Below are positions 3,161 to 16,418 of a stretch of DNA of 64,000 nucleotides, in pieces; positions within the stretch are counted from its first letter, which is position 1; every line of letters starts with the position of its first letter. Under the pieces are notes generated by a model. It worked only from the letters and a program-made list of their open reading frames with translations, was not told where the DNA came from and searched no databases. Source of the stretch: Escherichia coli. Its GTDB lineage: Bacteria > Pseudomonadota > Gammaproteobacteria > Enterobacterales > Enterobacteriaceae. The position numbers and the translations under genes are program-made. The stretch lies in NCBI RefSeq assembly GCF_044324875.1, contig NZ_CP172185.1. One strand, 5' to 3'.

Positions 3161-3619
3161 ATGGCTTCCGATAACCTGGTCAGTGTCACCATTAATGATA
3201 AATCCCTGCGCCGGAGCCTCCGTGCGCTGGATCTGGCTGCCACAGACATGGAGCCTGCGATGCGCAAAATCGCCGGAACCCTGCTGGCGGAAACACAGTT
3301 TAACTTTCTTGATGAGGGGCGTCCGGGGTGGATGCCCTCGCTGGCAGCGGAAGAACGTAACGGACAGACACTGCAGGATACCGGGCGTCTGATGGGGTCA
3401 GTATCAACCGAGCATGACGACCGGCAGGCTGTTGTGGGGACCAACGTTGTTTACGGTGCCATTCACCAGTTCGGGGGTAAAACGGGGCGTAATGAGTCTG
3501 TTGAACTTCCGGCCCGCCCGTTCCTGCCGGTGACGGAGGATGGAGAGCTACAGCCTGAAGTGGTAGTCCCCATCCTCGATACCATTGTCCGCCATCTTGA
3601 AGCAGCGGCCCGTCGCTGA
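3161..3619 (+). CDS. Virion morphogenesis protein (Mu G-like)
   Basis: 152 aa ORF immediately after F-like gene; Mu gene order. Confidence 0.65.
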   Translation: MASDNLVSVTINDKSLRRSLRALDLAATDMEPAMRKIAGTLLAETQFNFLDEGRPGWMPSLAAEERNGQTLQDTGRLMGSVSTEHDDRQAVVGTNVVYGAIHQFGGKTGRNESVELPARPFLPVTEDGELQPEVVVPILDTIVRHLEAAARR

Positions 3620-3661
3620 GTTTTCTCTCTTCAGGCGGGTGATTTATCATTGCCAGCGAAT

Positions 3662-3706
3662 GAGGGGCTGTATTACCTTTATAAAGGCTTTACAGCCTCT
3701 GTTTTA
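3662..3706 (+). terminator. Hairpin with embedded perfect palindrome CCTTTATAAAGG, followed by GTTTTAT
   Basis: GAGGGGCTGTA...TACAGCCTCT 10-bp stem with palindromic loop, in the 214-bp gap between G-like and I-like genes. Confidence 0.4.
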
Positions 3707-3833
3707 TAACTGCCTCCGGTTCACCACATTGCTTTCCCTGTCCTTCTCCCCTGATGTTTTCTAAAGCAGATTAAAATCGCCGGGCCCGCATTTCTCACAA
3801 ACTGTCTCCGACAACATAACGCGGGACAGCAAA

Positions 3834-4949
3834 ATGTCAGCCATTCACATTTTTAAAGCCGGTACTCATACCGATATGCACGGCAAAAAACTGCCGTTCA
3901 CGCCAGACGATCTTGCCGCCTGCGTGAAAGCCTATGACCCGTCCGTCCATGAAGCACCACTCGTGATTGGTCATCCCAGAACGGAAGACCCGGCGTGGGG
4001 CTGGGTGAAAGCCCTGTCGCTCAGCGGCGTCGATCTGATGGCAGAGCCTGCCCAGCTGGACCCGCAGTTTGCTGAGATGGTCACCGACGGACGATTCAAA
4101 AAAGTGTCTGCCTCTTTCTACCTCCCGGATTCACCGTCCAATCCGAAGCCCGGCGTGCTCTACCTGCGCCATGTGGGCTTTCTTGGGGCACAGCCACCTT
4201 CCGTCAAAGGACTGAAACAGGTGTCCTTCAGTGAGCAGGAAGAAGGTGTGGTGGAGTTCGCCGACTGGCAGGCCATCACGAATGCCTCACTGTGGGGAAA
4301 GCTGCGCGATTTTCTGATCGCCCGCTTCAGTCTGGACGAAGCAGAAAAAGTTCTGCCGGAATGGCAGCTCAACAGTCTGCGCGAAGAGGCGTACCGCGAC
4401 ACACCGTCGCAGGATGCAGCAGGTGCGCAATTCAGTGAGACAGGCCAGGTGCCGTCTTCCGCAAGTAACGAGGAATCATCGATGACAAAAGAAGAGATTG
4501 AAGCCCTTCAGGCGGAGAACCGCCGCCTGAAGCAGCAGGCTGCTGATCGCGATGCGCGTGATGCACAGGTCAGACAGGAGCAACTGCATAAGGACAATGT
4601 GGCCTTTGCAGAAAAACTGGTCGCAGAGGGCCGTCTGGCTCCCCGCGCCTCCTCCGTGGTGGTTGCCCTGCTGGATTCCGTCGCCGGTGGCGACAAGCCG
4701 GTGGAGTTTGCTGAGGGGGAAAGCCGCACACCGCTGGCCACCGCCTTCCGTTCGCTGCTCTCCGACGGGGAGCCGGTGATGAACTTCGCCGAACAGGCCA
4801 CGAAGGAGCGTGTCGGCGACACGGTGAAAGTGGATGTGACGGAGTTTGCAGAAGCCGACCCTGACCGTCTGGCACTGCACCAGAAGGCTGTGGAACTGTC
4901 GAAAAAAGAAGGCATCAGCTATGAGGCTGCTGTCACACGCTGCCTGTAA
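3834..4949 (+). CDS. Head protease / scaffolding protein (Mu I-like)
   Basis: 371 aa, immediately upstream of major capsid gene; charged coiled-coil-like C-terminal half typical of scaffold. Confidence 0.7.
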   Translation: MSAIHIFKAGTHTDMHGKKLPFTPDDLAACVKAYDPSVHEAPLVIGHPRTEDPAWGWVKALSLSGVDLMAEPAQLDPQFAEMVTDGRFKKVSASFYLPDSPSNPKPGVLYLRHVGFLGAQPPSVKGLKQVSFSEQEEGVVEFADWQAITNASLWGKLRDFLIARFSLDEAEKVLPEWQLNSLREEAYRDTPSQDAAGAQFSETGQVPSSASNEESSMTKEEIEALQAENRRLKQQAADRDARDAQVRQEQLHKDNVAFAEKLVAEGRLAPRASSVVVALLDSVAGGDKPVEFAEGESRTPLATAFRSLLSDGEPVMNFAEQATKERVGDTVKVDVTEFAEADPDRLALHQKAVELSKKEGISYEAAVTRCL

Positions 4950-9649: not shown

Positions 9650-9675
9650 AGGGGCTCCGGCCCCTTCTTCTTAAT
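9650..9675 (+). terminator. Rho-independent terminator-like hairpin
   Basis: AGGGGC-TCCG-GCCCCT stem-loop followed by TCTTCTT. Confidence 0.5.
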
Positions 9676-9740
9676 CTCCTTTAATATCCGTCACGCGCTT
9701 CTCCCGACATACTGCCCTGAACTTACACAGGAGCACAATC

Positions 9741-16016: not shown

Positions 16017-16070
16017 GCTTCTTAAACGCCTTTAATATCAGCGTTCCCGCACGGGGGCAATACTGCCCCC

Positions 16071-16418
16071 ATGAAAACGACCTCAGTATTCTGGCAACCA
16101 GCCCTGCAGGCTCCCGGCGAAATTGTCCGGGGGCTGGATGATATCCGGCAGGCGATTCAAATTATCCTGCGGACTCCCCGCGGCAGCGACCCGCATCGCC
16201 CGGAGTTCGGCAGCAATCTGCATCTTTATATCGACTGGCCTGTAGACCGGGCCATTCCGCATGTGGTGCGCGAATCCGTCGATGCCATCCGGCGCTGGGA
16301 GCCCCGCTGCCAGCTTATGTCAGTTAAACCCGCCGTCGACGGCGAACATCTTACGCTCCGGGTGAGCTGGAAAGGCTCAGACGGACAGACCCGGACTCAG
16401 GAGCTGCTATGGCGCTGA
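16071..16418 (+). CDS. Baseplate wedge protein (GPW/gp25-like)
   Basis: 115 aa with WEPR motif; immediately before J-like gene. Confidence 0.75.
   Translation: MKTTSVFWQPALQAPGEIVRGLDDIRQAIQIILRTPRGSDPHRPEFGSNLHLYIDWPVDRAIPHVVRESVDAIRRWEPRCQLMSVKPAVDGEHLTLRVSWKGSDGQTRTQELLWR

Follow-up and report, generated by a model that had tools for sequence, protein, structure and literature searches.

A conserved palindrome after the G-like gene of a BcepMu-like prophage as a possible counterpart of the Mu gyrase-site arm

The gap between the G-like and I-like head genes of a BcepMu-like (Bcepmuvirus) transposable prophage in Escherichia coli contains a 38-bp imperfect palindrome whose core is conserved in distant relatives. 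The palindrome folds as a hairpin, lies near the middle of the prophage upstream of a Mor-type late promoter, and carries helically phased units in the place where phage Mu has the right arm of its strong gyrase site. The explanation preferred here, which is put forward tentatively, is that the element is the BcepMu-family counterpart of the Mu gyrase-site arm as DNA, and probably also a leaky, weak terminator as RNA.

Under this explanation Mu-like transposable phages keep one copy of an AT-rich array of helically phased TAAAG/TTAAAC units just after gene G, near the prophage middle, and the hairpin would be its palindromic form in this lineage. The DNA would most likely act as it does in Mu, forming a flexible, phased right arm that is wrapped on the GyrA C-terminal domain. 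The wrapped arm would make gyrase bind and supercoil processively, thereby helping to join the prophage ends on induction. Gyrase cleavage would take place in a conserved block at 3634-3654. In RNA, the holin-to-G transcript would fold into a hairpin of about -18 kcal/mol followed by GUUUUAU and would probably undergo partial termination. Such a hairpin is expected because the units here lie as an inverted repeat that is followed by GUUUUAU.

Prophage setting and structure of the hairpin

The window, a stretch of 64,000 nucleotides from E. coli, begins inside the prophage. The latter is ~37.6 kb long and has its right end at window position 21653 (...CATTTATCGCGCGGCGCATCA), where its end repeats lie at 21611 and 21634. 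Of 5426 complete E. coli genomes, 636 (~12%) carry this prophage, which is 98% identical to Escherichia phage PhiKM; positions 3400-4000 are 100% identical to E. coli AR_0085. In AR_0085 the same prophage is inserted in a P2-like prophage, between R and lysC (L004 660 and ~38252). The two copies differ only in their last 2 kb, the tail-fibre and invertase region (window 19600-21653), which is probably an inverted segment.

The palindrome lies between two head genes (Table 1), the first of which is annotated as Mu G both in RefSeq and in PhiKM. The product of the second is 52% identical to BcepMu gp32, the equivalent of Mu I, and to phiE255 gp7. These genes are separated by 214 nt, the sole large gap of the head module, and a gap of ~200-285 nt is found at this junction in every relative examined. 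This agrees with the initial annotation, which had put the hairpin between G-like and I-like genes, where the head module has its one sizeable gap; the Phage_tail_S match and the BcepMu gp32 homology bear it out. Along the prophage the element stands at 52% of the length here, at 51% in BcepMu and at 48.7% in Mu; this central position is not independent evidence, because conserved gene order entails it.

Table 1. Features of the G-I gap and late promoters of the prophage (window positions unless L004 is given)
Feature	Position	Strand	Basis or remark
G-like virion morphogenesis gene; closes the holin-terminase-portal-F-G late unit	3161..3619	+	Pfam Phage_tail_S, 5e-23
Small hairpin CAGCG-GCCCGT-CGCTG over the G stop codon, then AGTTTTCTCTCTT	3603..3618	+	Terminator scan
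Conserved block GGCGGGTGATTTATCATTGCC, 15-17 nt after the G stop, candidate inverted counterpart of the Mu gyrase cleavage core	3634..3654	.	
Imperfect palindrome, 38 bp (central finding)	3663..3700	.	Sequence and RNA folding
Perfect 12-bp palindrome CCTTTATAAAGG, source of the inner 4-bp stem	3676..3687	.	
Arm GCTTTACAG, reverse complement CTGTAAAGC	3687..3695	.	Conserved arm
T-rich tail GTTTTATAA	3701..3709	+	Sequence; tail score -3.25
Mor-type activator site TTTCTAAAGCAGATTAAAATCGC of the I-gene late promoter, 16-bp dyad 3761-3776	3758..3780	+	Register, alignment with Mu Pm
-10 hexamer CAAACT	3798..3803	+	Same register in all five promoters and Mu Pm (TATCCT)
Inverted repeat CTGTCTCCG/CGGGACAG over the -10, putative start site and ribosome-binding region of I	3802..3829	+	
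I-like head protease/scaffold gene; opens the next late unit	3834..4949	+	Homology
Late promoter before I	3758-3803		Mor-type site and -10
Late promoter after the tube gene	9668-9713		Mor-type site and -10
Late promoter before W	16019-16064		Mor-type site and -10
Late promoter before the holin gene	L004 12962-13007	+	Mor-type site and -10
Late promoter before the dam methylase gene, Pmom-like arrangement	L004 11867-11822	-	Mor-type site and -10

As plus-strand RNA, the palindrome forms a 10-bp stem, a 3x3 internal loop, a 4-bp stem and a TATA loop, its letters being AGGGGCTGTA-TTA-CCTT-TATA-AAGG-CTT-TACAGCCTCT. The outer stem (3663-3672 with 3691-3700) consists of 10 pairs, five of them G-C and one of them G-U (G3665-U3698). 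The initial annotation had described a 10-bp stem with one G-U pair around a perfect palindrome, followed by GTTTTAT, and the sequence agrees with it exactly; its interval, 3655-3710, takes in the whole hairpin, the palindrome and the tail. Within the palindrome, the core conserved throughout the family is CTTTATAAAG (3677-3686), which is single-copy in the 64-kb window, in the whole E. coli prophage and in BcepMu. The adjoining arm adds a second TAAAG unit on the minus strand, 11 bp from the first. The AT-rich spots inside the element are ~9 bp apart rather than 10.5, and only two or three units are present.

A check of folding energy, as first suggested with the hairpin, gave -18.4 kcal/mol for the hairpin alone. 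In a 71-nt context the minimum-free-energy structure has -20.7 kcal/mol and the centroid, which includes the hairpin, -19.6; the z-score against dinucleotide shuffles is -2.29, and 5 of 200 shuffles were equally good. The minus strand of the region folds about equally well. The 21.6-kb prophage part of the window has 17 short-range inverted repeats, of which the hairpin ranks first and is also the longest. Comparison with the Rfam 15 covariance models returned chance-level matches only, with E above 1. These folding statistics are modest taken alone; it is the conservation in distant relatives, described below, that shows chance to be ruled out as its origin.

A second, much smaller hairpin covers the stop codon of G. 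With a folding energy of -6.1 kcal/mol and a tail score of -2.63 it is a weak terminator-like site, and its pairing is lost in two relatives (L011 and L014).

Late promoters around the G-I gap

Five promoters of the prophage share an identical register, consisting of xTAAAG-N5-TTAAAA and then nAnnCT 21 nt on, and BcepMu has four corresponding promoters. The motif aligns base for base, -10 register included, with the Mor site of Mu Pm, GTAAAGCCGGTTAATC. Footprinting in Mu Pm has located Mor on the dyad from -51 to -36 (PMC4287176). Since register and Mu Pm alignment match and the window prophage itself encodes a Mor-family protein, positions 3758-3780 are taken as a Mor-type site, and transcription of I would start at ~3810.

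The presence of a Mor-type promoter in the G-I gap means that the hairpin sits between transcription units. Its centre is 86-87 bp upstream of the centre of the Mor site, and termination at the hairpin would fall ~110 nt before the putative start of I. It had been suggested at first that the hairpin might separate early-late from late transcription, a division that finds no support, as the same type of Mor promoter serves both flanking units.

The inverted repeat over the -10 and the leader of I would fold only in read-through RNA, in which it resembles IS10-type fold-back inhibition, and this would fit an insulation of I from upstream transcription. I-leader inverted repeats of other sequence occur in Photorhabdus, Dickeya, Mu and beta-proteobacterial lineages. 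When the covariation of the I-leader hairpin was examined, RNAalifold gave no structure on an alignment that was crude and too gapped.

Two further sites were noted elsewhere in the prophage. A match of 16.4 bits to the Mor matrix, GCTTTAAAGTGCCTTAAAAGAGG, is located at 21144-21166 within the DNA invertase gene, where it overlaps a 14-nt palindrome. At 16054-16071, a hairpin GGGGGCA-ATAC-TGCCCCC overlaps the -10 of the W promoter and abuts the annotated start codon; given this position, the W start is either leaderless or mis-annotated.

Conservation of the core and loss of the hairpin

In ~16 lineages whose flanking DNA can no longer be aligned, the G-I gap retains the core CTTTATAAAG accompanied by an arm, either GTTTACAG or CTGTAAAC. 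These lineages span Enterobacterales, Pseudomonas and Burkholderia, and conservation in related phages, another check named at the outset, is thereby established for the core. In Enterobacterales the arm is kept as G(C/G)TTTACAG; for example, CTTTATAAAG(G/C)(C/G)TTTACAG is retained in Photorhabdus, Xenorhabdus, Dickeya, Pectobacterium and Serratia. The Pseudomonas phages carry CTGTAAAC on the opposite side of the core, giving the mirror form CTGTAAACGCTTTATAAAG, and the version in BcepMu is CCCGTAAAGTTTTATAAAGGCTTTACGGG.

The hairpin follows a different pattern. Hairpins with unrelated outer stems are formed round the core in the window clade, BcepMu, Serratia, the Plautia symbiont, L029, L033 and Iodobacter. 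No usable hairpin (0 to -8 kcal/mol) was found at the core in the Photorhabdus, Xenorhabdus and Pseudomonas lineages, in L011/L014 or in L035, and the outer stem is missing in more than half of ~20 lineages. In the nearest diverged clade, which is 86% identical and comprises KP12, Pantoea, Mixta and Trabulsiella, the hairpin and the preceding 43 nt are almost invariant and the next 55 nt are scrambled. The T-rich tail of this clade is replaced by CGCTTTGCA, which has a terminator tail score of -1.94 as opposed to -3.25 in the window. Measured against the usual cut-off of -2.5, the window tail GUUUUAUAA, with its four U, passes but is weak, and the KP12-type allele fails. T-rich tails scoring -3.2 to -4.3 accompany four of the five BcepMu-type hairpin lineages that were scored (BcepMu -3.91, Serratia -4.32, L029 -3.21).

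One alternative is that the hairpin is an intrinsic terminator only, which ends the holin-to-G late transcript and in which the AT-rich core is incidental, being either a favoured loop or little-changed ancestry. This is possible, if rather unlikely. A hairpin of -18.4 kcal/mol that is followed by GUUUUAU, scores -3.25 and stands after the last gene of one unit and upstream of the next promoter is what such a terminator would look like, and the recurrence of the same core with different outer stems and T-rich tails in BcepMu, Serratia and L029 can be read in the same way. Moreover, extra genes insert just downstream of the hairpin, and the inverted repeat at the I start suggests that the phage guards I against read-through. 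A terminator, however, should keep its structure while its sequence drifts, and the reverse is seen here: the sequence persists in Photorhabdus, Xenorhabdus, Pseudomonas, L011/L014 and L035, where there is no usable hairpin, and the KP12 clade has lost the tail. Serratia has a separate canonical terminator upstream of the element. The tube-gene junctions of the E. coli phage and BcepMu offer a comparison within the same family, as each has a GC-rich hairpin with a T-run and their sequences are unrelated. In addition, termination alone leaves unexplained the phased-unit signal across 60 lineages, which is described below. The pattern of kept sequence and lost structure thus points to a DNA site rather than a plain terminator.

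Comparison with known intrinsic terminators leads to a similarly mixed picture. Like Mu t9.2 and the tube-gene terminators, the window element is a stem-loop with a T-rich tail that closes a co-directional cluster, and its tail score is comparable to that of the tube-gene terminator of the same phage. Unlike them, it has a long, interrupted stem with an AT-rich top and only four U, its sequence is kept across families, and both stem and tail are dispensable in many lineages. The original proposal of a terminator or attenuator between transcription units therefore stands in part: the hairpin does lie at the boundary of two late units and passes a weak-to-moderate criterion, but its core sequence is kept where stem and T-tail have been lost in many lineages. 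A precedent for dual use exists in Mu Pm, where the hairpin of the t9.2 terminator overlaps a Mor site made of GTAAAG-type half-sites (PMC4287176). That site is centred near -43.5 of its promoter, whereas the window hairpin is ~130 bp upstream of the putative I start and is a very poor Mor site.

In three beta-proteobacterial relatives, an unrelated ORF of ~100 aa is inserted between the palindrome and the I promoter (L029 ~1098-1430, L035 ~1107-1409, L039 ~1086-1391). In these phages the palindrome lies ~70-85 nt after G and the Mor site beside I, with 450-500 bp between them. The element stays by G despite the inserted genes and therefore does not need to be close to the promoter. Gene insertion at this point fits an operon boundary, and the element marks the insertion slot. 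In most Enterobacterales and Pseudomonas lineages the palindrome is 84-89 bp from the Mor site and the spacer has diverged; a Rayleigh test for helical phasing of the palindrome-to-promoter distance was not significant.

Phased units and the strong gyrase site of Mu

One signal that links the window element to Mu is the spacing of units, which across the family peaks at 10-11, 20-21 and 30-31 bp. A set of 60 non-redundant relatives, to which Mu belongs, was scanned for the unit T[AT]AA[ACG][CG] over positions -300 to -85 relative to the I start. Of the same-strand pairs, 35 were spaced by 10-11 bp, 16 by 20-21 bp and 10 by 30-32 bp, with ~0.3 expected per peak, and only one pair was observed at 14-17 bp and one at 25-28 bp. 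As controls, three coding regions contained no pairs at 10-11 bp, and a fourth, located upstream (-650..-435), contained six. A phased pair is carried by 22 of the 60 lineages, the window and Mu among them. In the window element, TAAAG-type units are 10-11 bp apart on each strand. In Mu, the array consists of TAAAAC, TTAAAC and TTAACG at distances of 20 and 11 bp, and it is the right arm of the strong gyrase site. Removal of this right arm abolishes the preferential activity of gyrase in Mu, which removal of the left arm does not (PMC13284261; PMC10052514).

The positional parallel between the two phages extends over the whole region. Like the window element, the Mu strong gyrase site lies in the G-I gap, near the centre of a transposable prophage (PMC2628397). 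Both phages have a conserved block 17-20 nt after the G stop, and the gyrase cut site of Mu is annotated 20 nt after it. From +27 to ~+70 relative to the block, both have AT-rich, phased TTAAA-type units that can be folded into a hairpin followed by (G)TTTTAT; the Mu right arm gives a long hairpin and then UUUUAU. According to the published geometry of the complex (PMC13284261), the 49-bp wrapped segment of Mu is exactly this hairpin plus TTTTATC, and the same geometry, when measured from the block at 3634-3654, lands on the window hairpin and its tail. The two arrays differ in layout, Mu having three direct TTAAAC repeats at 20 and 11 bp and the window having TAAAG units inverted around TTTATAAA. 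Any homology between the TTAAAC direct repeats of Mu and the TAAAG palindrome of BcepMu would rest on motif, phasing and position, not on alignment.

The candidate core in the window is inverted with respect to that of Mu and is not significantly similar to it. The block does not vary among the KP12, Pantoea, Photorhabdus and Xenorhabdus lineages, and the stretch separating it from the palindrome differs by ~10 bp from lineage to lineage. Set against the reverse complement of the Mu core, the sequence GCGGGTGATTT within the block agrees at 10 of 11 positions, and with the stronger nuB variant it agrees at all 11. When the block was aligned with the Mu core against shuffles, p was ~0.11 for the reverse strand and 0.66 for the same strand, values that are not significant alone. 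In Photorhabdus and Xenorhabdus, the strong hairpin of the gap is formed by this block and not by the palindrome. A relation of the block to the transposase end repeats was considered and rejected: its 7-mer GATAAAT is the core of these repeats, but 8 copies of it are scattered over 40 kb, where ~5 are expected, and the flanking letters are not the same.

Arrays closer to that of Mu occur in other relatives. The sequence AAACGCGCC..CGGG..TTAAAC..TTTAAAC of the Mu arm recurs in the Achromobacter, Bordetella and YPCBV-1 phages. The Mu-arm motif was also noted, at the same spacing and ~170-200 nt upstream of I, in L071, L075, L081 and L007 (Achromobacter, Bordetella, Pusillimonas and Chromohalobacter). 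The late-promoter site of all these phages is of another type, GGTGAAG-N2-CTTCACC instead of TAAAG. As a Mu-like array is kept together with a different activator site, the array does not track activator specificity.

Gyrase binding, the position of cleavage and termination are predictions for the window element, whereas gyrase cleavage, processive supercoiling and a replication phenotype have been shown for Mu, in which loss of the site brings a delay of roughly 100 minutes. Two computational measures of gyrase preference proved uninformative. A score of strong and weak base classes, taken from the printed 133-bp consensus (PMC6379681), put the true Mu site no higher than 129th within its own genome and was set aside. 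A proxy for deformability, which was built on dimer steps, failed to reproduce the published percentiles of the Mu arms and was discarded. Oram and Pato reportedly found in 2004 that the equivalent fragment of the BcepMu-like prophage from Salmonella Typhi was cleaved by E. coli gyrase and did not replace the Mu site. For the Pseudomonas phage Ab30, the central gap after the G-like gene has been put forward in other work as a gyrase site. As a relative of the window element, the Ab30 candidate (L092 840-905, record 18739-18804) was rejected, being two copies of an unrelated palindrome, GGCACAWTGTGCC.

The REP/BIME-2 elements of E. coli are another point of comparison, since they too are intergenic palindromes at operon ends. 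They are preferred targets of gyrase and can affect the 3' end of RNA (PMC6379681; PMC5977238). REPs are GC-rich and multicopy in the chromosome, in contrast to the window element with its AT-rich centre and single copy per phage genome, and no sequence similarity was seen between the window element and REP/BIME-2.

An array of this kind might instead bind some non-gyrase protein by which late expression is tuned or silenced, either as an auxiliary site for the Mor-family activator or as a target of H-NS/MvaT, IHF, HU or Fis. This is judged unlikely, although several observations lean toward it. The units resemble Mor half-sites: CTGTAAAGCC, which is the hairpin core read on the opposite strand, agrees with the left half of Mu Pm, CAGTAAAGCC, at 9 of 10 positions and BcepMu TCGTAAAGCC at 8 of 10. 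The minus strand of the hairpin ranks 44th of 128,000 positions by the promoter-site matrix, the arrays of Iodobacter and Achromobacter score 17-21 bits, and the spacing of 84-89 bp to the promoter site is kept despite divergence of the spacer. The candidate nucleoid proteins, for their part, recognise curved AT-rich DNA. Nonetheless, the hairpin itself scores 1.1 bits on the minus strand, compared with 15-29 bits at the five promoter sites, and neither strand has a -10 in proper register (the minus strand reads CTGGCA there, and the plus strand offers no fitting hexamer). The arrays persist alongside activator sites of a different type and in Mu, whose late promoters use C; the element remains with G when a gene splits it from the promoter; and the distances show no significant helical phasing. 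Inspection of the element by eye revealed no convincing IHF, Fis, LexA, CRP or DnaA consensus. The protein binding site that the initial annotation had offered as a further option is favoured, as a DNA site, by the pattern of conservation; as a Mor site the hairpin reaches only 1.1 bits.

Two more specific roles were rejected. A second Mor site, or an antisense or extra promoter, is contradicted by the 1.1-bit score and by the absence of a -10/-35 at a workable register on both strands. A repressor operator is contradicted by the absence of any similar motif from the early operator regions of the E. coli phage and BcepMu, which also weighs against the non-gyrase proteins above. Finally, a chance palindrome, to which the modest folding z-scores alone would be no obstacle, is excluded by conservation over ~16 lineages, and a part of a small coding gene is hardly tenable either, since the frame at 3639-3764, which has a GTG start, is open in the window and in Klebsiella phage KP12 and is annotated across the element in the latter as a 'hypothetical protein', is scrambled over ~13 codons by two compensating indels between window and KP12, meets a TAA inside the palindrome in Photorhabdus, and has upstream nucleotides that are invariant even at would-be synonymous positions. 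The KP12 ORF, KP12_270 (L002 3540-3665, equivalent to window 3639-3764 and 41 aa long in the window), is very likely spurious.

A central strong gyrase site is at present known functionally only from Mu, and other authors did not find this feature in related phages such as KS10 (PMC2628397). If the window element is the counterpart of the Mu arm, as is tentatively preferred here, such sites would gain a searchable sequence definition, namely phased TAAAG/TTAAAC units after gene G. The family would also supply natural variants with and without hairpin potential, through which the strength of gyrase sites could be probed. The relatives of the prophage in Enterobacterales, Pseudomonas and Burkholderia widen the relevance of the element beyond E. 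coli.

A more far-reaching proposal, that gyrase-site arms are built from repeats of one conserved unit (TAAAG/TTAAAC), which would be sequence-specific and akin to Mor half-sites, is quite doubtful. Were it true, it would imply a dedicated recognition step, for instance by a phage or host protein that positions gyrase. The 38 bp of the BcepMu lineage would then be bifunctional, combining a signal for DNA wrapping or recruitment with an RNA terminator, and the end of a heavily transcribed late operon would be coupled to the management of supercoils at the prophage centre. Even if the element is a terminator only, the late layout of the family has been mapped, with its five Mor-type promoters, operon boundaries and gene-insertion slot, and the annotation of these phages is improved by the removal of a spurious small ORF.
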